From a plasmid, in sequence record NZ_CP065264.1: a stretch of 18,117 nucleotides of DNA; one strand, given 5' to 3'. The position numbers and the translations under genes were made by a program. The number at the start of each line of letters is the position of its first letter. Position 1 is the first letter of the stretch. The notes beneath the pieces are model-generated. The model was not told the origin of the DNA and did no database searches. It saw only the letters and a program-made list of their open reading frames with translations. Positions 2,880 through 14,019 of this stretch are shown piece after piece.

Positions 2880-5800
2880 GTGACCGCGACTTGTCACAAG
2901 CTGACCGCCGGGGACGGGTACGAGTACCTGACCCGGCAGGTCGCTGCGTACGACAGCACCGAAAAGGGCCGCATGTCGCTGGCGGACTACTACCACGCCA
3001 AAGGCGAAGCGCCCGGCCGCTGGGTCGGTTCGGGGTTGAAGTACCTCAGTGACCCGGCGGGCCGATCACTGACCGACGAGGAACGCCAAGACTGGACCGT
3101 GGACGAAGGTTCGGAGGTCACGGCCGAACAGATGAAGGCACTGTTCGGTCTCGGGCAGCACCCGAACGCCGAGCAGATCGCCACGAAAGCCGTTGCCGCA
3201 GGCGTACACCCAGATGTCGCCAAGAAGATCCCTCAGCTGGGCCGCCCATTTCCGATCTACACCAAGGCATCCGAGTACCGGAAGGCATGCGCCGAGGCAT
3301 TCGGCGCCCACAATGAACACCGGGGCCAGCACGCCGCAGCGGCCATCGACGACGACGTGCGCGCACACATCCGCAGCGAGGTTGCCCGAGGAATGTTCGC
3401 CCAGCAGCACGGCCGACAACCCGATGCCCTTGAACTCACCACGTTCATCGCCGAACATTCACGCCCGGCCACCATCGCCGTGTCCGGGCACGACTGGTGC
3501 GCAAGCCCAGTCAAATCCGTCTCCACACTGTGGGCCGTGTGCGGCACCCGCGAGCGCCAGCTCATCGAACTCGCCCAGGACTTGGCCGGGCAGGGCGCGA
3601 TCCAATCCATGGAGCGCAACAGCCTCTTTACCCGCATGGGCGCCCAAGGCGTCCAGCAGCTCGACGCCACCGGATTCATCGGCACCGCCTTCACCCATCG
3701 CCAAAGCCGAGCAAATAACCCCGACCTGCACACCCATTACGCATTGAGCGCTAAGTGCCGCGCGATCGGTCCCGATGGTGTCCCCCGCTGGCTGGCCATG
3801 GATGGCCGCCCGTTCTACAAGTCGCTCGTCGCGATGTCCGAAACGTACAACTCGCTGCTTGAGGCGTACCTCATTGAATTCCTTGGTGTGCAGTTCGTGG
3901 AGCGTCCCACCGAGCCTGGCAAGCGGCCCATCCGCGAGATCGCCGGTATCTCCCCGGAACTGATGGAGTTCTGGTCGCAGCGGGCCAAGATGATCGACGA
4001 TCGGCTCGCCGAACTCACGATCAAATTTCAACGGGAAGTGGGCCGCGAGCCCACCGCCTCGGAGGCATACGACCTGTCGCAGCGCGCCACGTTGGAGACA
4101 CGGCAGGCCAAGATGGAGCCGCAGTCATTCGCCGAGCAGCGCGAGAGCTGGCACCGCGAAGCAGTCGAAGTGTTGGGCTCGGAGAAGGCCCTGGCCGAGA
4201 TGTTGACCAATACCCTTGGCCGCCAGCAGCACCGCGCACAAGAACCAGTCAGCGCCGAATGGATCGCCGACAAAGCCACCCAGTTGCTCGCCACCGTGGC
4301 CGAGTCCCGGGCCAAATGGCAGTGGGCGCACGTGCACGCCGAAGCCTGGCGCATCGCCCGTGCCGAAGGCGTTGCCCACCAACCGGACATCGCCGAGCAG
4401 CTCACGAACGCGGCGCTCGGACGCAGCATCCGCGTCGCCTCCACCGCTCTCGACGGGGAACTCAACGAGCCCGATTTCCTGCGGCGCCGCAACGGCGAAT
4501 CGGTCTACACCACGCACGGCACCGACATGTACACCTCCGCTGACATCGTGGCCGCCGAACGGCGAATCGTCGCTGCCGCGACAGAACGAGGTGCCCGCCG
4601 CCTCGATGCTGACAGCATCGATATGGCGCTACTAGAGCACGCGGCGAACAGCGACTTCGCACTCAACGCCGATCAAGCGGCCCTCGTGCGTGCGCTCGGC
4701 AGCTCCACCGCCGGAGTGCGACTCGCGCTCGCGCCCGCCGGAACCGGCAAGACCACCGCCATGTCCGTGTTGTCGCACGCATGGGCCGACAGCGGCGGAA
4801 CGGTACTCGGGCTCGCCCCCACCGCCGCAGCCGCCGAGATCCTCGGCGCAGAGATCGGCACCAACGCAGACACTCTCGCCAAGTACGTGCACTGCACCAC
4901 TCATCCCGAACATCCAGTGCCCGCATGGTTCGACCGGATCGACCACAACTCGCTCATCCTGGTCGACGAAGCGGGCATGGCCGCCACCTTGGACCTCGAT
5001 GCACTTATCGCCCATGCGCGGGGCCGCGGCGCCACCGTTGTGCTCATCGGCGACGATCAGCAGCTTGCCTCCATCAGTGCTGGCGGTGTCCTGCGCGACA
5101 TCGCCCACGTCTGCGGGGCCACCACCCTGACGACAGTGGTTCGGTTCGCTGACCCCGCCGAATCGGCCGCCAGTTTGGCACTGCGCCAGGCCGATCCGGC
5201 AGCCCTGGGCTTCTATCTGGACAACGAGCGCGTGCACATCGGCTCCGATGCGGCTGCCGCGGACATGGCCTACACCGCGTGGCGCGCCGACATCGATGCA
5301 GGCATCGACAGCATCATGCTTGCGCCCACCACCTCGACCGTCACCGAACTCAATCAACGCGCCCAGGCCGACCGCATCGCCCGCACCGGGCGCCGGGCCG
5401 GGCGAGCCAGCAGCCTGCGCGATGGAACCCGCGCACACGTCGGCGATGTCGTATTCACCCGGAAAAACGATCGCCGCCTGACAATCTCGGGCACCGATTA
5501 CGTGCGCAACCGGTACCGCTGGACCGTCCGCGAAGTACACCGCGACGGTTCGCTGACAGTGCAGCAGATCACCAAATCCACCAAGCCCGGCCGCATCGTG
5601 CGGTTGCCCTCCAGCTACACCGCCCGGCACATCACTCTCGGCTACGCCGCCACCGTGCATGCCGCCCAAGGCTTAACCACGATGCGCTGCCACCTCATCG
5701 GAGCAGCCTCCCTGACACGCCAGTTGCTATATGTGGCGATGACGCGCGGCAAGCTGGGTAACCACATCTACTTTTCCACCGCCGAACACGATCCCCACAA

Positions 5801-8624
5801 GATCATCAGCGCCAGCGCCCTGCTGCCCGAGACCGCCACCGAAATCCTCACCAAAATCCTGGAGCGCGACGGCTCTCAACACTCGGCGACCAGCGCCCAG
5901 CGTGATGCGCAGAACCCGTTCCTGCGTCTGGCACACGCCGCCGGCTACTACAGCGATGCCGTGGAATCCTGCGCCGAACACCAGCTCGGCGCCGACATCA
6001 TGGCCGCCATCGATCAGGGCGCCAATGAGCTGTATCCCCAGCTCACCGAAGCAGACGCCTGGACCGCGCTGCGCAAACACCTCGCCCTGCGCGCATTACC
6101 GGACCAGGACGCCAAAACTGCTCTTGATGTTCTGGCCGCCGCGATCACACGGCGCGAGCTCGACACCGCCGACGATCCGGCCGCTGTCCTGCACTGGCGC
6201 ATCCAGCAGCGCACCGGCACCCAAGGTCCACTCCCCTGGCTCACCGCCATCCCCGCCGAGCTGCAACAACAGCCCGACACCGCGATCTACCTGCACGCGC
6301 GCTTCTCGCGGGTCCGGGACCTCGCCGAGGAGGTACACACCGCCGCACTCGCCTGGACCTCTGACACCGCGCCCCGCTGGGCGCAGGCACTGCATGCCGC
6401 CGACCCCGTGCTTACCGCCCGCATCGCCGTCTTCCGCGCCGCGTGCGGCATCGACGACGCCGATCAGCGCCTCACCGGCCCCGACCAATACGCAGTCACC
6501 CTGCGCAGCCACCAAGCAGTGCTGATGAAGGCCGCCGCAGCGGCCCTGCCCGGGCTCGACGCAGGCCGCAGCCGCTGGACCGACGCAGTACGCCACCTTG
6601 ACCCACGACTGCCCGACGATCCCTACTGGACTCAGCTCACGCACCTGCTCGACGACATCGAGCGCGACGGCTTTGACGTGTCCCAGATCCTGGAGGCTGC
6701 CGCCACCAAGCCCCTACCTGCGGACATGCCCGCCGCGGCCCTGTGGTGGCGGGCGATGCGCGCCATCCACGGCGACACCCGACCCAGCAGCGCCGCACCC
6801 GCTGAGCTTCTTGAGCTATGGACCAGGGAGAAGAACCTCGCCGATCAGCTCGCCGAGCTTGAAACAGCCCAGGCCGAACCCACCCATTGGGGCACACCGC
6901 ACCTGGCCGCGTTCAAAGACCGCTACGGGCAACTCCTTAGCGAATACCGCCGCCAAGAACCCCACCACCGCGCCGTCACCGACGCCTACGAGCGCTGGCT
7001 GGCCGCCGACCGCGAACTCACCGCCGCCAACCGCACCACCGACCGGGAGAACCCGGCCGACACTGACGAACGCCGCGCCAGGGCCGCCGGCGCCGAACAG
7101 GCCGCCCGCGACACCCTGCACCACGCACAGCAAGAGCGCGCGCACGCCCTCGGCGGCGCCCAACCGGTCACCGACACCATGCTCACCGAACTCGTCGACG
7201 AAGCCCTCCGGGCCGATCGCCGACTACTGGAAGACACCCGAAACAGATTGCAGCGAGCCAAAACACGGGCACGTAGCGCCGAACAGCAGGCGGCGATCGA
7301 GGCTGTCAAAGACACCGGCAGAACCAGCCGCGGCGAAGAAGACGACCTCACCCAGATCCGCCTGGCCTACACCCTGCTCGAGGACGCCGCACACACCCAC
7401 GCCCGCACACCCCGGCCCAGCATCGACCAGAGCGGGCTCAGCGCCGACCAGATTGCCGTAGCCCGCGAACTCGCCCGCTCGCCGTACACCCTCAACGTGC
7501 TCACCGGCACCCCGCAGGACACCCGCGCCGTGCTGGACAGCATCCGCGCCGGAGCTGAACGCCAGCAGCGCACCGTCCACGACATCACGGCCGCCGACAC
7601 CATCGGCGCCGACGACATGCTCGACGCGATCGTCCTAGTCTCCGATGCGGACCGCTGGGAACTGCCCGCCCTGCACCGTCTCGCCGAGACTGCACGACGC
7701 GAACACGCCAAACTCATCCTGGCGGGCGATCCTCAAACAGCCGCCGCCACACCCCATTTCCGGGCACTAGCCGCCGAACTGCCCTGGACCCAGGCCGCGC
7801 ACGAACAGCGCCACGCGGCCACACCGGAAGTCGTTCTCGCATCCACCACACAAGAGGCCACCACATCAGCAATCCAGGCCGCCCAACATGATCAGGCAGC
7901 AGGTGTCGATGCCGTCATCCTCGCCGCAGGCCCGCAGCAGGCCGATGCCCTCAACACCGCAGTACACGAGCGCGGCGCGGCACGAGATCGTGTGGCCATC
8001 GGCTGGCATCACCTCGGCGTCGGCGACATCATCACCACCACCGCGGCCACCGAAACCGCAGACGGCACCGCTGTCGCTCCTGGCGGGCGCTGGACCATCA
8101 CCGAACTCGACCAGGACGCCGCGACCGCCCAGGCCATACGTCGCGACGACCCGTCCGTCACGATCACCGTGGGCGAACACACCCTCTACGAGCTCGGCTA
8201 CGCCCAAACCGCGCGCACCTATGCCGCCGGCCCGGCCGCCGACCGAATTCACCTGCCGATCGACGAGCACACCGCGGGCGCCGAACTGCACACCAGTCAC
8301 CACGCCGACACCACGCTGTACGTGGCCGCCACCAGCACCGAGGAAGCCGCCGACGTCATTGCCGCCGCCCAGGCCCGCGATACCCGGCCACGCCTCGTAC
8401 TCGATACGAAAGCCGAGGCCGCGCAGCGCAAAATCGACAACAGCGAGAAGGTATCGCCGATCGACAAACTCGCCCTGCAACTCGTCGACAAACGCGCACA
8501 GCTCAAAGCCGCCGCCACCGAGCATTACCGGCAATGGACCGCCCGCCAACAACGAGCAGCTCAAGCACGCCAACGCGCCGCCGAGCGGGGACGCTCCAAC
8601 GACGGCCCCGGCCTGTCTCTCTAA
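2880..8624 (+). CDS. traA: MobF/TrwC-family conjugative relaxase-helicase (TraA-like), about 1914 aa. It has an N-terminal HUH relaxase domain, an active RecD-like helicase, an Ala-rich coiled-coil segment and a C-terminal degenerate (vestigial) second helicase-like domain.
   Basis: Relaxase motif I is HKLTAGDGYEYLTRQVAAYD...SLADYYHAKGEAPGRWVGSGL with catalytic Tyr residues. The 3-His motif is NNPDLHTHYAL. Walker A is LAPAGTGKTT, Walker B is LILVDEAGM, followed by VVLIGDDQQL, TVHAAQGLT and LLYVAMTRGK. The track ORF begins at 2454, but everything upstream of 2874 is low-complexity and overlaps the divergent membrane-protein gene. GTG 2880 (alternative 2874) is the first start that keeps the catalytic-Tyr motif. 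Confidence 0.9.
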   Translation: MTATCHKLTAGDGYEYLTRQVAAYDSTEKGRMSLADYYHAKGEAPGRWVGSGLKYLSDPAGRSLTDEERQDWTVDEGSEVTAEQMKALFGLGQHPNAEQIATKAVAAGVHPDVAKKIPQLGRPFPIYTKASEYRKACAEAFGAHNEHRGQHAAAAIDDDVRAHIRSEVARGMFAQQHGRQPDALELTTFIAEHSRPATIAVSGHDWCASPVKSVSTLWAVCGTRERQLIELAQDLAGQGAIQSMERNSLFTRMGAQGVQQLDATGFIGTAFTHRQSRANNPDLHTHYALSAKCRAIGPDGVPRWLAMDGRPFYKSLVAMSETYNSLLEAYLIEFLGVQFVERPTEPGKRPIREIAGISPELMEFWSQRAKMIDDRLAELTIKFQREVGREPTASEAYDLSQRATLETRQAKMEPQSFAEQRESWHREAVEVLGSEKALAEMLTNTLGRQQHRAQEPVSAEWIADKATQLLATVAESRAKWQWAHVHAEAWRIARAEGVAHQPDIAEQLTNAALGRSIRVASTALDGELNEPDFLRRRNGESVYTTHGTDMYTSADIVAAERRIVAAATERGARRLDADSIDMALLEHAANSDFALNADQAALVRALGSSTAGVRLALAPAGTGKTTAMSVLSHAWADSGGTVLGLAPTAAAAEILGAEIGTNADTLAKYVHCTTHPEHPVPAWFDRIDHNSLILVDEAGMAATLDLDALIAHARGRGATVVLIGDDQQLASISAGGVLRDIAHVCGATTLTTVVRFADPAESAASLALRQADPAALGFYLDNERVHIGSDAAAADMAYTAWRADIDAGIDSIMLAPTTSTVTELNQRAQADRIARTGRRAGRASSLRDGTRAHVGDVVFTRKNDRRLTISGTDYVRNRYRWTVREVHRDGSLTVQQITKSTKPGRIVRLPSSYTARHITLGYAATVHAAQGLTTMRCHLIGAASLTRQLLYVAMTRGKLGNHIYFSTAEHDPHKIISASALLPETATEILTKILERDGSQHSATSAQRDAQNPFLRLAHAAGYYSDAVESCAEHQLGADIMAAIDQGANELYPQLTEADAWTALRKHLALRALPDQDAKTALDVLAAAITRRELDTADDPAAVLHWRIQQRTGTQGPLPWLTAIPAELQQQPDTAIYLHARFSRVRDLAEEVHTAALAWTSDTAPRWAQALHAADPVLTARIAVFRAACGIDDADQRLTGPDQYAVTLRSHQAVLMKAAAAALPGLDAGRSRWTDAVRHLDPRLPDDPYWTQLTHLLDDIERDGFDVSQILEAAATKPLPADMPAAALWWRAMRAIHGDTRPSSAAPAELLELWTREKNLADQLAELETAQAEPTHWGTPHLAAFKDRYGQLLSEYRRQEPHHRAVTDAYERWLAADRELTAANRTTDRENPADTDERRARAAGAEQAARDTLHHAQQERAHALGGAQPVTDTMLTELVDEALRADRRLLEDTRNRLQRAKTRARSAEQQAAIEAVKDTGRTSRGEEDDLTQIRLAYTLLEDAAHTHARTPRPSIDQSGLSADQIAVARELARSPYTLNVLTGTPQDTRAVLDSIRAGAERQQRTVHDITAADTIGADDMLDAIVLVSDADRWELPALHRLAETARREHAKLILAGDPQTAAATPHFRALAAELPWTQAAHEQRHAATPEVVLASTTQEATTSAIQAAQHDQAAGVDAVILAAGPQQADALNTAVHERGAARDRVAIGWHHLGVGDIITTTAATETADGTAVAPGGRWTITELDQDAATAQAIRRDDPSVTITVGEHTLYELGYAQTARTYAAGPAADRIHLPIDEHTAGAELHTSHHADTTLYVAATSTEEAADVIAAAQARDTRPRLVLDTKAEAAQRKIDNSEKVSPIDKLALQLVDKRAQLKAAATEHYRQWTARQQRAAQARQRAAERGRSNDGPGLSL

Positions 8625-9031
8625 AGACCGACAGCGCTCAGCGGGTGCGCAGACTGTGTCTTGCCGCTGATCGCCGCGTTGAAATACGCGATCGCCGCCT
8701 CGTGTAACCGATTGCAATGGACCACGGACGAACCGTCCCACTGCTCCTGCCTTTTGGACCACTCGGCCATCCGCAGCGCGACCGCCGCGCCGGGGGCGGC
8801 ATAGAAGAAATCGAACTGAGCCTGCTCTTTCCACGGCCCCGTGGGTATCGCGGCGACCATGGCGCCGGTGCTCAAGTACACCCACACCGAGGCGCCGACA
8901 TTGTTCGACTTCAAATCGAGTGCGTCAAAGGGCGCCGGCAGATCCCGATCGTTACAGGAGTGATCCAGCACAGCCCACCCGGCAGGAACCGGTTCATTCG
9001 TGTTCACCATGACACCATCATGGCCGTTCAC
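8621..9031 (-). CDS. Hypothetical 136-aa protein, last gene of the minus-strand operon. Candidate partner or immunity-type protein for the upstream 787-aa modular protein.
   Basis: GTG start at 9031 lies 16 nt after the stop of the upstream gene on the same strand. Third-position GC is consistent with coding. Trp-rich; no recognisable motif. Its 3' end converges on the relaxase stop with a 4-bp overlap. Confidence 0.45.
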   Translation of the reverse strand: MNGHDGVMVNTNEPVPAGWAVLDHSCNDRDLPAPFDALDLKSNNVGASVWVYLSTGAMVAAIPTGPWKEQAQFDFFYAAPGAAVALRMAEWSKRQEQWDGSSVVHCNRLHEAAIAYFNAAISGKTQSAHPLSAVGL

Positions 9032-9046
9032 GTGGACATCCTGTGT

Positions 9047-11410
9047 TTAGAGGCCACTGATCCTCTCGGCAGCCGCCACCGCATACGTGGCATCGGCCAG
9101 GTTCGGCTCCTCAGCGCTCAGATGCATCGCCGCCTCCAGGATCTGCGCAGAGATCCACATCGGCCGATATACGGCCTGCATCATCATCTCTACTTCGCCC
9201 GGCGGACCATACTCGCCCGCACCCGTGCGGTTAGTGGAGGCGAGCTGCTGGCGCAGGCGATGCTCACGGCGCAACTCATCGGCCAACTTCTCCGAAACAC
9301 GTTGCTGAGCACCAAGACTGGCGAAAGCATCATGGCCGCACGTGGGCAACTCAGAGCCTTCTGTCAGCGGCAACAGGCGGCGAGCGCGAAGCGCCAAATC
9401 ATCGATCACAGCCTGAGGATGATCCTTGGCCGCGCTCAGCCGCTCGTGCGCGCCGGGCTCAAGTGAATTCACGCGGTGATACCGATCAAAAGTCAGTCCT
9501 GGATCTTCGGCATTCCACGCGAACGGGCTGGCGTCTCGATCAACCCAGCACACCGGGATCTCCCGACGCTCAGCAGCAGTCGTCGAGCCCGACGTGGCCA
9601 GGCCCAGTAGAGGAGTGCCGCCCGCTGCCACGCGAGCATCGCCGTACTCAATCATCACGCGTGTCACGTCGATCCAACCGAACCAGCGCCGCAAGAAATC
9701 CAGCGGCAGGGCTGGATCCGTCAGGGCCGGAACCAACGTTCTGACGGGAATCACTGGCTGCGGTATGCAACCCCAACCGTAATTCGACACCATCAGCGTC
9801 CCTATGCCGCCGTACGGCATCTCGAACAACCCCACCGCGAACTCAACATGCCACCACTCCTGGCGACACGCATGCAACAGCTCCCACACCAACATCCGTG
9901 CCGGACCAAAATCAGGCCACCCGACTTGCTCGGCCGCACGCTCCACAGCGGCCCCGGCCGCCCCTGAACCCGCCAACAACGCACCAGGTGCGCCAGTCCC
10001 GCCACCAGGATTCGGCGGCGCAGCCGGTCCAACCGGAGCACCAGGGGAAGGAGCAGCCGCAGTGGCGCTACCGCTTCCACTTGCGCGTATATCCGACCCG
10101 AACGGTGGCAACGAACCCCCACCAGCAGCCGGGACCGCAGAAGGGCCGGGACCAACCGGCGCCACCGGAACAGGCTGCGCACCAGCACTACTCAGAGCAA
10201 CCGCAGCCGGTGTCCCACCAGCACCAGGTACTGCGCCCGGAGCGCCGAGAGGTGTCGGCGACATCGGCGGCCGAACACCCTCAGCCGGCGCCAACGGCCG
10301 CACCACAGCAGGTGCAGCAGGAGCCGAGGCGGCCGACGTGAACCCCTTTGCAAAATCCTGCACCGGCCCGCTAGGCGCTGCCGATGGTACGGCACCCAGA
10401 CGCGGAACAGACGAACCATTTCCCAAGCCGCCCAACGAATTCGACGGCTTCATGCCCGACGACAAACCACCCAGCATCGACGACCCGCTGCCTGAGCCCG
10501 CGCTAGGACTCATCCCACCCGCCAACGGCGAAGCCGGAATACCGCGTCCAGCAGCCGAACCCACACCAGGATCGGCGACACCCGGTGTCCCGGACGTTGC
10601 CCTATGTGCCGCCGATGATTCGGGCGTCGAACCGTCGGCTTGGCTTTGATCGGCCCGTCCGGAGGACTCGCCTTGAGACGTGGAGCGATGGCCGTTTTTC
10701 GCGGAGTCGCTTTCTGAAGCTGGTTCACGGCCATTGTCTCCCTCGGATGGAGGAGACATCGGTCTGTGATCGCGCCGGACTCCGCCACCTTTTTCTGTTA
10801 CCGAGTCGACCGGGTGGACTGCATTCCCGCCGTGAGGTGCAGGTGCGCCAGACCCGTTCTTACTGGCAGCTGCGCCAGTCCATACAGGCGCGGCGGCTGC
10901 CAGAGCTTCGATCTCAGCGGTGGCTTTGGCCACCGCTGCATCGACCTCTAGACCAGCGGCAGGGACTATCCTCGCGATCTCCGCGCCCAGCGCCATCGGG
11001 TTTCCCGCGAACTTCGCTTCGGCTGCTTCGATCTCGGCGTGTGCTTCCTCGTCGATACGCATGATTTCGAGCCGCAATGTCTGTTGAATCGCGCCCGCTT
11101 GAAACAGCATGGGCGATTCCTTCGCGCACCCCTCGGCCAGCTCGTTCCATAGGCCCAATTCCTGCTTATAGGCGTGCACTGAGGCCGCGGCAAAAATGCC
11201 CTTCTCCTCAGACTCGACCTCGGCGATAGCGCGTCGCACGCTCCCGGCCGCCGCCTGCGCATTTTCGTGCTCAGCGCGCCCAGCAGCAGCTAGATCACCG
11301 ATCAGGCTCGGCGGGCACTCTGGCCAGCCCTTGCGGATAATCACCTTGGAGAAACGACGGTTCGGCATCGACAGGGCCATAAAACTCACACTAAGCCCGC
11401 AGAGCCGCAC
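9047..11410 (-). CDS. 787-aa three-part protein: N-terminal alpha-helical domain (~200 aa), a ~330-aa Gly/Ser/Ala/Pro-rich disordered linker, and a ~300-aa Cys/Trp/His-containing globular C-terminal domain. Its architecture resembles ESX-associated Esp/CpnT-like secreted effectors.
   Basis: A continuous 2.36-kb frame with three distinct compositional modules. The linker is the cause of the spurious antisense ORF at 9804-10649. The C-domain contains WELLHACRQEWWHVEF, SNYGWGCIPQ and PTCGHDAF. The exact start is uncertain; GTG 11410 or ATG about 11380. Confidence 0.65.
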   Translation of the reverse strand: MRLCGLSVSFMALSMPNRRFSKVIIRKGWPECPPSLIGDLAAAGRAEHENAQAAAGSVRRAIAEVESEEKGIFAAASVHAYKQELGLWNELAEGCAKESPMLFQAGAIQQTLRLEIMRIDEEAHAEIEAAEAKFAGNPMALGAEIARIVPAAGLEVDAAVAKATAEIEALAAAAPVWTGAAASKNGSGAPAPHGGNAVHPVDSVTEKGGGVRRDHRPMSPPSEGDNGREPASESDSAKNGHRSTSQGESSGRADQSQADGSTPESSAAHRATSGTPGVADPGVGSAAGRGIPASPLAGGMSPSAGSGSGSSMLGGLSSGMKPSNSLGGLGNGSSVPRLGAVPSAAPSGPVQDFAKGFTSAASAPAAPAVVRPLAPAEGVRPPMSPTPLGAPGAVPGAGGTPAAVALSSAGAQPVPVAPVGPGPSAVPAAGGGSLPPFGSDIRASGSGSATAAAPSPGAPVGPAAPPNPGGGTGAPGALLAGSGAAGAAVERAAEQVGWPDFGPARMLVWELLHACRQEWWHVEFAVGLFEMPYGGIGTLMVSNYGWGCIPQPVIPVRTLVPALTDPALPLDFLRRWFGWIDVTRVMIEYGDARVAAGGTPLLGLATSGSTTAAERREIPVCWVDRDASPFAWNAEDPGLTFDRYHRVNSLEPGAHERLSAAKDHPQAVIDDLALRARRLLPLTEGSELPTCGHDAFASLGAQQRVSEKLADELRREHRLRQQLASTNRTGAGEYGPPGEVEMMMQAVYRPMWISAQILEAAMHLSAEEPNLADATYAVAAAERISGL

Positions 11411-11440
11411 TTTCCCGGGTCGAAATTTTGTTCGATCAAG

Positions 11441-12043
11441 CTACGGGACCACCGGCTCACCGAGCTGGCGGCAATAACCATTAATAGGGTTTCCGACCTC
11501 GGCTGAGTCGTTGAATATGTACCGCGCGTCGGCGGTCCAAAACTCATCGTGCACAACCAGATTTACCGCGACAGTTCGATCAATCATCCGGCGGCCAGCC
11601 CGATCTAGCCATCCTGAACCTTGCGCCCTAACCAGGGTATCCAGAGATCCCTTCGTGCGATCGGCCCAGCCGTTGACCCAGGAGCTATAGCGTTGGAACT
11701 CAGCACCAGTCGGTCCGTGGTCGATCACTGCCGATGGCATCATGTCGATGGTTTCGGCGAGTAACGGGCGCATCGTGCGGCACCACTGCTTGTCGGATTC
11801 CTTATTGAAGATGAAACTCTCGACAGTCGCCGACCCGGACGGAGAAGTTGATGAGGCGGCGGGTGGTGAGACATCCTTGCGAGCTGACCCGGCAATGAAG
11901 ACAGCGGCCACCGCACCGATCAACGCCGCCGCGCTCATCACCGCCGCCGCCACGACCAATCCGCGCTGGCGCGGCGGAGGCGGAGAACCTGCTGGGCCGG
12001 GCATGTAGTGTTGCGGTGCAACGTAATTCGGTGAACCGTCCAT
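11441..12043 (-). CDS. Membrane-anchored protein, 200 aa: a Pro-rich N-terminus, a single TM helix (LVVAAAVMSAAALIGAVAAVFIAG), then a ~130-aa extracytoplasmic domain.
   Basis: ATG at 12043 shares one nucleotide with the upstream gene's stop (TGATG overlap). It lies 30 nt upstream of the 787-aa gene. Confidence 0.6.
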   Translation of the reverse strand: MDGSPNYVAPQHYMPGPAGSPPPPRQRGLVVAAAVMSAAALIGAVAAVFIAGSARKDVSPPAASSTSPSGSATVESFIFNKESDKQWCRTMRPLLAETIDMMPSAVIDHGPTGAEFQRYSSWVNGWADRTKGSLDTLVRAQGSGWLDRAGRRMIDRTVAVNLVVHDEFWTADARYIFNDSAEVGNPINGYCRQLGEPVVP

Positions 12044-12690
12044 CAGATTTCCCGCACACTAGCCTGCTCGCCAGCAGCTTTCGTGTCGGCCGAATCAATC
12101 AGTGTGATCCCGCCGTGGCGACCTACAGCGTTCGACGAACCCTGCCCGCCGGCATGAGTTTTACCCGCAGCCTTAAACGCAGCGAATTTCGCCACCAAAG
12201 TACCCACCGCCGCATCAGTAGGACTGGTGCCCACAGCAGCAGGAGCACCCGAAGTATGAGCCGCATGCTCGGCAGATTCCGCTTCCGCCTTACTAGTAGC
12301 GGCCCGAGCCTTCTCCGGATCGAGCCGCACCTGCTGCCCCGAACCCCCAGGACCAGCCCCTGGAATCGAGCTGGCAGCGGGCGCAGTCGCACTCGTCGGC
12401 GAAGCTAACCCTTGAAGCATCGACAGCGGCTGCTGAATACCCGACAGCGCCGGGCTTACAGCCTGCGACAACTGGTTAGGCAACTGACCGACTTGCGAGC
12501 CGATCTCCTGGACAGGCTGCAAGAAGGTCGATGGGTCAATGCCGTTGGCGGGCAAATCAGAACCGAGGCCCGACGCATCCGCACTACCGGCGGAATCCGC
12601 AGGAGACGCACTGTGCGAGGCAGCTGCGCCAGGCTCACGCTCATCACCAAGCTCTTGTCCAGAGTGCGGATCTGGTGAAGCCGCGTTCAT
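12043..12690 (-). CDS. Low-complexity Ala/Ser/Gly/Gln-rich 215-aa protein, unknown. Contains Gln-rich repeats such as LPNQLSQAVSPALSGIQQPLSMLQGL.
   Basis: ATG at 12690 overlaps the stop of the upstream 180-aa gene (ATGA). No TM segment. Compositional bias is the only signal. Confidence 0.5.
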   Translation of the reverse strand: MNAASPDPHSGQELGDEREPGAAASHSASPADSAGSADASGLGSDLPANGIDPSTFLQPVQEIGSQVGQLPNQLSQAVSPALSGIQQPLSMLQGLASPTSATAPAASSIPGAGPGGSGQQVRLDPEKARAATSKAEAESAEHAAHTSGAPAAVGTSPTDAAVGTLVAKFAAFKAAGKTHAGGQGSSNAVGRHGGITLIDSADTKAAGEQASVREI

Positions 12691-13229
12691 AACGGCATCG
12701 TATCCCCAGGTGGAGGACTATGAGTGGGTGGATTCGGCTTCATTGCGCATATCGGGCACACAGCCAGAAACTCCTTGTGCTTGATGTCCGCCGCCTCACG
12801 GCGCTGTGCACCCATCCGCTGCGCCATACCAACGAGATCCCCGGTGCGATCGTCAAAATACGCATCACGCAACAGCCACGCCTGTTTTTCTGCAACCGGT
12901 AGGGACTGCCACTGATCAGACTTCATTACCGTCGCGGTGAATTCGCGCCGCTGGCGGGACTCCGCCCCCCGAGCCCGGATTTCGGCCTCAAGGAAATCAC
13001 GCAGATGAGTACGCCACGCATCGGCAGCAGCAGCCGCAGCCTCGATCGCATCAATTCGCTCAGCGATCGTTTTCTGCGGGTCGGATAACGCCGACGCCGT
13101 TTCGTACAGTTCCCCCAGTACATCTAGCGGCGGTACCCACCGATCGGCAGACACCACCTGCCCTTTCAAAACAGACGGCGACAAGGTCCACGGATCAAAC
13201 GGCGGATCTGGCGGCTGCGGAGTACTCAT
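12687..13229 (-). CDS. Hypothetical 180-aa protein and first gene of the minus-strand operon. It has a CPIC motif near the C-terminus.
   Basis: ATG at 13229 starts it. Its stop is coupled to the next gene through an ATGA overlap. No recognisable family. Confidence 0.55.
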   Translation of the reverse strand: MSTPQPPDPPFDPWTLSPSVLKGQVVSADRWVPPLDVLGELYETASALSDPQKTIAERIDAIEAAAAAADAWRTHLRDFLEAEIRARGAESRQRREFTATVMKSDQWQSLPVAEKQAWLLRDAYFDDRTGDLVGMAQRMGAQRREAADIKHKEFLAVCPICAMKPNPPTHSPPPGDTMPL

Positions 13230-13295: not shown

Positions 13296-13432
13296 TCCCC
13301 TCCCCTCTGGCCCTGATTGTGCGTTGGGTGGTGGTGCTGTCAAGGCCATGCCGCTGCGCGGTCGGTCAAAGCCCGAGCCTTGACAGCACCACCACCCAAC
13401 GTGAGATCGGCCAATATGAGGGAAGGGGAAAA
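13296..13432. promoter_or_regulatory. 137-bp palindromic divergent control region. Its core is a perfect 25-bp inverted repeat (13322-13346 and 13377-13401) separated by a 30-nt loop.
   Basis: CGTTGGGTGGTGGTGCTGTCAAGGC ... GCCTTGACAGCACCACCACCCAACG. Outer arms TCCCCTCCCCT / AGGGAAGGGGA match at 10 of 11 positions. The region lies between the operon start (13229, -) and the 193-aa gene (13438, +). Confidence 0.5.
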
Positions 13433-13437
13433 ATCAG

Positions 13438-14019
13438 GTGATCCCCGATAACCAGCCTTTGCCGCCACTGATAGCTACTGTGATCAGTATGGAGCTTTCC
13501 GGTCGTTACCTGCGGCTTTTAGACACCTACGAGGAATACCTCGTGTTGCGTGACATGCTCAACAGAATCGACGAAGTATTGGTTTCCGCCGAACGCAGCA
13601 GGGTCGAGGAACGACCACTATTCACCGTGCGCCACATGCACGACCTCTATGCAGCGTCCCCGTACATCGAAGTCTCATTCGACCGCCAGCGCGAGGCCGA
13701 GCGAGCCCTGGCCGCCGCGGTGGAAACATACCGCAAAGCGTTCCACGCAGTAACCCGGGGCCGCGAAGATGTCACGAAAATTGTTGCCAAGCAAGGACTT
13801 CCCTACCCAATCGATTTAGAATCCGATTCCCGTAAGCGGCCCGCACTGTTGCCCTGGTGGCAACGCGTCGGCCGTTATCAGTGGCGCGGCGGAGAGATAT
13901 TCATCGAACGGCCAACAGGCGACAGATTCCAGCCCATGAACAGCCCAGACCCCACACAGGCCATCGAGATTGAACGCAGCGCTGGCCGCCGCGAGATCAC
14001 TTCGCAACAGCCCACCTGA
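13438..14019 (+). CDS. Hypothetical 193-aa cytoplasmic protein and first gene of the lower-GC accessory island.
   Basis: GTG at 13438 is preceded by GAGGGAAGGGGAAAAA (SD-like); the alternative start is ATG 13489. Codon third positions are GC-biased as in a real frame. No known motif. Confidence 0.5.
   Translation: MIPDNQPLPPLIATVISMELSGRYLRLLDTYEEYLVLRDMLNRIDEVLVSAERSRVEERPLFTVRHMHDLYAASPYIEVSFDRQREAERALAAAVETYRKAFHAVTRGREDVTKIVAKQGLPYPIDLESDSRKRPALLPWWQRVGRYQWRGGEIFIERPTGDRFQPMNSPDPTQAIEIERSAGRREITSQQPT

Follow-up and report, generated by a model that had tools for sequence, protein, structure and literature searches.

By what route do the small 'mobilizable' plasmids that are common in clinical strains of Mycobacteroides abscessus move between cells, and what does type VII secretion (ESX) contribute to the conjugation of pRAW-type mycobacterial plasmids? 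Both questions are touched by a five-gene operon on an 18,117-bp stretch of plasmid DNA (sequence record NZ_CP065264.1; the window), which aligns as a whole at about 95% identity with pGD69B-2, a circular 18,611-bp M. abscessus plasmid. The length of the window equals that of the cluster pC plasmids (pGD22-2, pGD24, pGD34, pGD39, pGD75 and pGD100A/B), listed as 'mobilizable' by Dedrick et al. 2021 (PMC8092301). Outside the operon, which takes up about a quarter of the plasmid, lie genes for a relaxase, a resolvase, a ParA protein and a few hypothetical proteins. An earlier inspection of the DNA letters (the sequence-only reading) had singled out the operon for its lack of any recognisable enzymatic family and for a 787-amino-acid (aa) effector-like protein followed by a 136-aa partner, a layout compared with ESX-associated effectors and CpnT-like toxin-plus-immunity pairs. 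Here we report that the 787-aa product is an EspK-family protein, and that its gene belongs to a module of four genes found in the transfer regions of much larger mycobacterial plasmids.

The 787-aa protein does fall into the three parts first described, a helical N-domain, a Gly/Ser/Ala/Pro linker and a C-domain containing Cys and Trp (Table 1). The structure prediction and Foldseek comparison that had been suggested for the C-domain gave a confident AlphaFold2 model (predicted local distance difference test, pLDDT, 89; predicted template modelling score, pTM, 0.87) with the fold of EspK. Only two proteins were matched at probability 1.0, namely EspK (Rv3879c; 8AKO chain B; PF27215), the ESX-1 adaptor/chaperone of EspB in Mycobacterium tuberculosis, and Rv3899c (5IMU; DUF5631/DUF5632), which is encoded beside ESX-2 in the same species; their E values were 3.4e-5 and 3.4e-4, and all else had E > 1. 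The same pair ranked first when a 26-sequence C-domain profile was compared with Protein Data Bank (PDB) sequences (EspK, 8AKO_B, E 0.0022; Rv3899c, 5IMU, E 0.0066), a search in which a six-sequence profile missed EspK. In addition, PF27215 (EspK_C) is among the precomputed Pfam matches of three close relatives (P0007, P0008 and P0009), and several family members have sub-threshold matches to DUF5632, which, like DUF5631, is a Pfam domain defined on Rv3899c. A beta-lactamase-like match at residues 707-774 (E 0.007-0.2) was rejected as short, sub-threshold and situated inside the helical bundle.

The N-domain points in the same direction. In the family alignment, conservation of the N-terminal pattern MALSMPNRR.S..I...WP begins at M11 (MALSMPNRR, ATG 11380), which is the probable start of the gene and would give a product of 777 aa. 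The AlphaFold2 model of the N-domain is helical (pLDDT 90.9), and its five best PDB matches in Foldseek are all PPE41 or PPE15 chains of PE-PPE-EspG complexes (probability 0.99-1.0, template modelling (TM) score 0.5-0.67, E 0.04-0.19); structures of such PPE chains include those of PPE41 (4W4K/4KXR). The family profile finds Staphylococcus aureus EsxA (2VRZ/2VS0) at E 6.5e-5, with the whole of its WXG100 domain aligned, and, at E 0.0036, an ESAT-6-like protein. Likeness to PPE proteins is confined to the level of the fold, as the 787-aa protein has no Pfam PPE (PF00823) match at E up to 1 and no PPE motif, and the window holds neither an adjacent PE gene nor an EspG gene. The N-domain is conserved across the EspK-like family, and a profile search, limited by its word index, did not find it fused to other C-domains, returning only short fragments without other domains. 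Between the two domains, the linker holds two short motifs that are kept in close relatives, GPVQDFAKGFTS and GGxLPPFGSDIR.

Since the C-domain has the EspK fold, the N-domain is WXG100/PPE-like and the layout is that published for EspK, with its N-domain, unstructured linker and C-domain (PMC9811218), the 787-aa product is an EspK-family protein and not a toxin. The long unstructured linker that joins N- and C-domain in that family is present here. Location within or beside an ESX locus, another feature of the family, is not seen for the window copy; it does hold for the family at large, in which distant members lie beside eccB/eccC and close ones downstream of eccA. The differences from EspK are nonetheless considerable. 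C-domain identity is only 12%, EspK is encoded in an ESX-1-type espJ-espK-espL-espB block whereas the window gene sits beside a relaxase on a plasmid without an ESX core, no EspB-like client is encoded nearby, and a dedicated membrane-protein partner is encoded upstream. Rv3899c is further removed in architecture, being a 410-aa protein with an annotated twin-arginine translocation (Tat) signal and lacking both the WXG100/PPE-like N-domain and the 300-residue linker.

How widespread this architecture is was gauged with a HMMER search of the C-domain against 1.84 billion cluster representatives. Relatives were found in at least 154 clusters, mostly of 760-850 aa with the domain at about residues 480-790, and the tripartite N-linker-C length pattern is seen in 71 of 155 family proteins; these 71 are the sequences of 700 aa or longer that the C-domain search yielded, so that they possess an EspK-like C-domain by construction, and the N-domain was aligned for 40 of them. 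The EspK fold, so far described only from M. tuberculosis chromosomal proteins, is thereby extended to a plasmid-borne family of at least 154 clusters. In a scan of species-representative genomes with a narrow alignment, the only C-domain homologue lay on one 86-kb unplaced contig of a Mycolicibacterium vanbaalenii draft assembly, replicon unknown.

These results bear directly on the CpnT-like interpretation, in which the 787-aa protein would be a polymorphic toxin of CpnT or LXG type, exported by type VII secretion, with a toxic C-domain and the 136-aa protein as its cognate immunity factor. The resemblance to CpnT/IFT and LXG toxin-immunity pairs is real as far as layout goes: there is an N-terminal helical domain related to secretion and of the WXG100/PPE-like kind found in type VII-exported toxins, a linker, a C-domain and a small gene 15 nucleotides (nt) downstream, with an AGGA Shine-Dalgarno-like motif of its own inside the gap. 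The C-domain, however, does not have a toxin fold but that of the substrate-binding domain of a secretion chaperone or adaptor. Its only significant structural matches, EspK and Rv3899c, are both non-enzymatic; it has no match in Pfam, NCBIfam, PHROG or PDB sequences, and so none to a toxin family; and it is not polymorphic, the same architecture recurring throughout the family with no sign of swapped C-domains.

Nor does the 136-aa gene behave as a fixed partner. Co-occurrence had been set beforehand as the check on that claim, and a 136-like gene is absent after the EspK-like homologue in six loci (here and below, L001 is pGD69B-2, L008 is a plasmid of M. aubagnense and the other L-numbers denote loci carrying homologues): L002, L009, L014, L015 and L021/L022, the relaxase following the EspK-like gene directly in the last two. 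Conversely, 136-aa homologues in pGD54, pMA100 and the M. aubagnense plasmid lie away from any detected 787-aa homologue, none of the three appearing among the matches of the 787-aa protein, and in L016 the 136-like gene is found after eccA. We therefore consider the toxin-immunity reading largely refuted and its truth most improbable, and the 136-aa gene is by its distribution a dispensable add-on rather than a dedicated partner. The 136-aa protein belongs to a family of small proteins of mycobacterial plasmids with an invariant GAMVAAIPTG motif and conserved Trp residues (window 8621-9031; L006 8013-8369; L007 7884-8348; L008 7980-8405; L016 815-1249). In pMSPYR102, pELW1-1 and L014, small open reading frames (ORFs) of 158, 183 and 194 aa, respectively, come after the EspK-like gene; they were considered as counterparts and discarded, being unrelated to the 136-aa protein or to each other.

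With the fifth gene set apart, what remains constant around the EspK-like gene? All five minus-strand ORFs between 8621 and 13229 are present as originally described, and the stop-start coupling noted for them stands, with an ATGA overlap between the 180- and 215-aa genes and a TGATG overlap between the 215- and 200-aa genes; the gap between the 200- and 787-aa ORFs is 30 nt, or 60 nt from the start supported by the family. Five coupled genes are thus a fair description of the window. As a conserved unit the five do not hold together, as the 136-aa gene differs in distribution from the other four: the conserved module comprises the 180-aa gene, the 215-aa gene, the gene for the 200-aa membrane protein and the EspK-like gene, with a variable fifth. 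Homologues of the 215-aa, 200-aa and EspK-like genes co-occur in L002, L009, L014, L015, L016, L019 and L021/L022, and a 180-like gene is found in L015, L019 and L021/L022. The 200-like gene is directly upstream of the EspK-like gene in L002, L009, L014, L015, L016, L019 and L021, and this pair, membrane protein and EspK-like protein, reaches as far as pMSPYR102 and pELW1-1.

In large plasmids the module has a defined place. In close relatives (about 39-43% identity), the 215-like gene (40-45% identity) follows eccA, directly so in L002, L009 and L014, and in L015 and L016 its immediate downstream neighbour is the 200-like gene; in two of the close relatives, EccA is itself preceded by genes for a VirB4-like AAA_10 ATPase and for a protein of about 640 aa. 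The fullest arrangement is that of a 91.8-kb plasmid of M. farcinogenes, in which an ESX-P locus (43-64 kb) and type IV secretion system (T4SS)-like genes (66-80 kb) are followed by EccA, the 215-like gene, a 171-aa gene, an inserted toxin-antitoxin pair with IS3, the 200-like gene, the EspK-like gene, ImmA/IrrE and a convergent mobF. In plasmid ESX loci, more distant family members directly adjoin eccB or eccCa on the upstream side and themselves come after DUF4226, 'type VII secretion target', DUF2694 and YbaB-like genes. No 787-aa homologue was detected at E 1e-5 in the pRAW-like plasmids of slow growers.

The EspK-like gene converges on a MobF relaxase gene in the window, pGD69B-2, L014, L021, pMSPYR102 and pGP01, and the relaxase of L014, which is convergent with the EspK-like gene there, is 63% identical to that of the window. 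The adjacency of operon and relaxase noted from the letters is therefore correct, with one amendment: as the relaxase gene lies on the plus strand, it is its 3' end that the operon faces, in convergent orientation. From the order in large relatives, ESX-P, T4SS-like genes, EccA, module and relaxase, the module is the relaxase-proximal end of the conjugation region of large pRAW-type mycobacterial plasmids, and it is this end that the window keeps. Compared with the pRAW-type region itself (ESX-P1, T4SS-like genes and a TraA/MobF relaxase; Ummels et al. 2014), the window retains relaxase and module and lacks EccA-E, MycP, VirB4-like and VirD4-like genes. In pRAW, the ESX-P1 and T4SS-like loci are both required for conjugation (PMC4173767). 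The link to ESX and to conjugative elements suspected at the outset is accordingly upheld by the WXG100/PPE-like N-domain, by the EspK fold and by the mycobacterial plasmids on which homologues lie next to eccB/eccC or follow eccA and VirB4-like genes.

A gene order that equals the relaxase-proximal end of the transfer region of larger plasmids, on a replicon without any core secretion gene, could also be left behind when a large conjugative plasmid shrinks to 18 kb, in which case the operon would be a decaying remnant with no current function. The sequences speak against decay. Relative to pGD69B-2, all five genes and each of the three parts of the 787-aa ORF have ratios of nonsynonymous to synonymous polymorphism (pN/pS) of 0.16-0.36, and no frameshift or stop is seen in any of the five, including the 882-nt low-complexity stretch within the 2.4-kb EspK-like gene; most opposite-strand ORFs have pN/pS > 1 or gain stops. 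The five ORFs are real genes under purifying selection and not chance ORFs. Moreover, small plasmids with protein identities of only 66-82% also have all four module genes in intact form. We regard loss of function as highly unlikely.

All five products remain below threshold in Pfam, NCBIfam and PHROG, and their matches to PDB sequences are not significant, which bears out the earlier remark that none has a recognisable enzymatic family; family profiles of the 180-, 215-, 200- and 136-aa proteins likewise found no PDB sequence match, and homologues of these small proteins no Pfam match. Homologues of the soluble 180-aa protein at 65-96% identity occur only on contigs of related small M. abscessus-type plasmids, always ahead of the 215-aa, 200-aa and EspK-like genes; L015 has a 29%-identical homologue (E 6e-13) directly after the EspK-like gene, and its position is thus permuted. 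The 215-aa protein is of low complexity and rich in Gln, Ala and Ser, as first described; it has no Tyr, and its conserved C-terminal half ends in AADxKAAGEQASVRxI. A possible equivalence with the ~115-aa or 'type VII secretion target' proteins of ESX-P loci was dismissed at an hhalign probability of at most 0.4%.

The 200-aa protein is indeed of the single-pass membrane kind: residues 30-48 form its one transmembrane segment (Kyte-Doolittle maximum 2.43), its N-terminus is Pro-rich, and its exported domain of about 125 aa, presumably of a disulfide type, has C88 and C191 invariant in the alignment. Distant homology (hmmsearch E 6e-5 and 2.5e-5; hhalign probability 89%, E 2.4e-6) links it to the membrane protein encoded ahead of the EspK-like gene in pMSPYR102 and in the ESX locus of pELW1-1. 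Just upstream of the EspK-like gene in the plasmid ESX loci L005 (5843-7498), L010 (6862-8510) and L012 (6757-8383), two paralogous single-pass membrane proteins, mostly unannotated, with Pro-rich N-termini and two-Cys exported domains (hhalign probability 98.8%), flank a ~115-aa gene; homology of these paralogues to the 200-aa protein of the window could not be shown.

A single-pass membrane protein with an exported Cys-pair domain, encoded beside transfer genes, might act in entry or surface exclusion, blocking redundant transfer into cells that already carry the plasmid. Its counterpart in pMSPYR102 has a very weak TrbK-like match (E 0.18), which is far below threshold and falls in the transmembrane segment. 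Exclusion would moreover leave unexplained a cytoplasmic EspK-type adaptor with a WXG100/PPE-like domain and the association with EccA, and we judge it to be very unlikely as the function of the operon.

What, then, would an EspK-type protein do on a small plasmid? The C-domain of EspK clamps the helical tip of EspB, and its N-terminus has been proposed to contact EccCb1 (PMC9811218). By analogy, a PE/PPE/EspB-type client would have its helical tip gripped by the C-domain of the window protein and be kept monomeric, the EccC ATPase of a type VII system would be the docking site of the N-domain, and the disordered linker of about 300 residues would serve as a tether. Synteny suggests that the module would let the small plasmid draw on an ESX in trans at some step of conjugal transfer or of mating-pair formation, the donor of that system being possibly an ESX-P/T4SS-like helper plasmid or the chromosomal ESX-3/ESX-4, in a logic akin to that of mobilizable plasmids with their own relaxase and coupling factors. 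On these grounds of analogy and synteny, we think it fairly probable that the operon is an EspK-centred type VII (ESX)-associated accessory or adaptor module serving transfer through an ESX in trans. The bolder proposal, that secretion-gene-free small mycobacterial plasmids as such carry their own EspK-type module of adaptor, membrane partner and two soluble proteins and thereby plug their transfer into a type VII system encoded elsewhere (helper ESX-P or ESX-3/ESX-4), is put forward tentatively, as a possibility we hold to be rather doubtful.

Several observations weigh against a role in type VII-dependent transfer. The whole 18-kb plasmid has no ecc, mycP or any other secretion gene, and no obvious gene for a PE/PPE/EspB-type client. 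EspK was not among the best 150 of the 154 matches of the six-sequence C-domain profile search, which places the window family in a separate clade whose ligand may differ. In the N-domain the Gly of the WxG motif aligns to 'EKG' and the Trp, which EspK possesses, is replaced; the statistics of this domain are moderate, with the Foldseek E values given above and unrelated helical proteins also matched by the profile at E 0.001. A canonical YxxxD/E motif is found in none of the four soluble proteins of the operon. Finally, Table 2 of Dedrick et al. does not list cluster pC plasmids together with large ESX plasmids (PMC8092301), so a helper plasmid would not normally be present.

In the main rival, the operon is cargo: type VII substrates and their chaperone would be exported through the chromosomal ESX-3/ESX-4 and alter the envelope, competitiveness or virulence of the host, with no role in DNA transfer. 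EspK, EspB and PE/PPE proteins act in virulence and not in conjugation (PMC9811218), there are clinical strains that have cluster pC plasmids but no ESX plasmids (PMC8092301), and the membrane protein has an exported domain. Against this, every larger relative has the module within its transfer region, after the VirB4-like and EccA genes and before the relaxase; in small plasmids it has stayed beside the relaxase across 20-35% protein divergence; and C-domain homologues were not found in the species-representative genomes except on the M. vanbaalenii contig. We therefore look on cargo as unlikely, and on the exclusion and remnant explanations as weaker than cargo.

Some of these elements were already known. 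The fold and family had been defined by EspK, Rv3899c and PF27215, and Dedrick et al. had noted WXG-100-domain proteins in cluster pC plasmids and suggested the use of host type VII systems (PMC8092301). In the literature searched we found no prior description of the large gene as EspK-like, of the four-gene module, or of its position between EccA/T4SS-like genes and the relaxase. If the adaptor proposal is true, the module would be the type VII counterpart of a mobilizable plasmid with its own coupling factors, and would be the first plasmid-specific recognition component to be defined in type VII-dependent conjugation. As a set of four genes on a small plasmid, it also offers a compact and genetically tractable handle on the role of type VII secretion in conjugation.

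Table 1. Features of the operon and the adjoining relaxase gene in the window (pN/pS relative to pGD69B-2)
Feature	Position	Strand	Description
MobF/TrwC relaxase, ~1915 aa	2877..8624	+	Pfam TrwC 1.9e-65, AAA_30 3.6e-56; mobF in pGD69B-2 annotation
Fifth gene, 136 aa, variable accessory	8621..9031	-	pN/pS 0.36
Fourth gene, EspK-like, 787-aa ORF	9047..11410	-	pN/pS 0.27
C-domain, residues 485-787, 303 aa	9050..9958	-	4 Cys and 10 Trp; EspK_C fold: alpha/beta/alpha sandwich and helical bundle
Low-complexity linker, residues 191-484	9959..10840	-	66% Gly/Ser/Ala/Pro, no Cys or Trp; pN/pS 0.34; no indels
N-domain, residues 11-190	10841..11380	-	three-helix WXG100/PPE-like bundle
Third gene, 200 aa, single-pass membrane protein	11441..12043	-	one transmembrane segment
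Second gene, 215 aa, Gln/Ala/Ser-rich	12043..12690	-	pN/pS 0.20
First gene, 180 aa, soluble	12687..13229	-	pN/pS 0.25; conserved member of the module
Candidate promoter/operator region of the operon	13316..13401		TTGACA-16-CACAAT and inverted repeat

The analysis also corrects database annotation, in which genes of this family are split or truncated by the NCBI annotation pipeline PGAP. In the RefSeq/PGAP annotation of pGD69B-2 (L001 8920-12566, equivalent to window 9047-12690), the 787-aa gene is represented by no more than its last 282 codons, the 215-aa gene is absent and two spurious antisense genes are placed inside the 787-aa gene, one with pN/pS > 1 and the other acquiring a stop. Homologues in pMSPYR102, pGP01, pMYCCH.02 and others are truncated in the same way, and two relatives bear the label 'chemotaxis protein'.

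Upstream of the operon, the divergent intergenic region contains a perfect 25-nt inverted repeat (13322-13346 and 13377-13401, 30-nt spacer) with a TTGACA in each arm; its predicted single-stranded DNA fold has an energy of -43.5 kcal/mol (z -9.6). The promoter-like site TTGACA-16-CACAAT lies within the repeat on the minus strand at 13343-13316 and shows no enrichment over shuffled sequences. pGD69B-2 retains the 25-mer unchanged, and L019, where flanking proteins are only 65-89% identical, has three identical copies; L021 lacks it. The repeat is a candidate operator of divergent promoters, or alternatively a candidate oriT- or res-type site. Beside it, at about window position 13441, collinearity with pGD69B-2 is lost (L001 13319-13786): about 466 additional bases are present there in pGD69B-2, with an annotated 121-aa gene, and explain most of the difference between the cluster pC members of 18,117 and 18,611 bp.

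In the larger plasmids, the interval from the 215-like gene (in L016, from EccA and the 136-like gene) to the 200-like gene is a hot spot of inserted defence and mobile genes (L002 8488-11129; L009 ~3800-7750; L014 2900-9200; L016 1260-8436), the inserts comprising Xre/RES with IS3, AbiEii/DUF6088, PIN/Phd, PemK, IS110 and a Tn3-type gene, and a TIR-domain protein with PIN_10.

At the opposite end of the operon, the relaxase gene, ending in TAA on the plus strand, and the 136-aa gene, ending in TAG on the minus strand, overlap by their stop codons at 8621-8624, leaving no space for a terminator between the two transcription units. The relaxase itself is about twice as long as that of pMSPYR102, and its residues ~1514-1796 align a second time, at 25% identity, to the helicase region of this shorter protein, which suggests a second, degenerate helicase-like domain in the C-terminal stretch.

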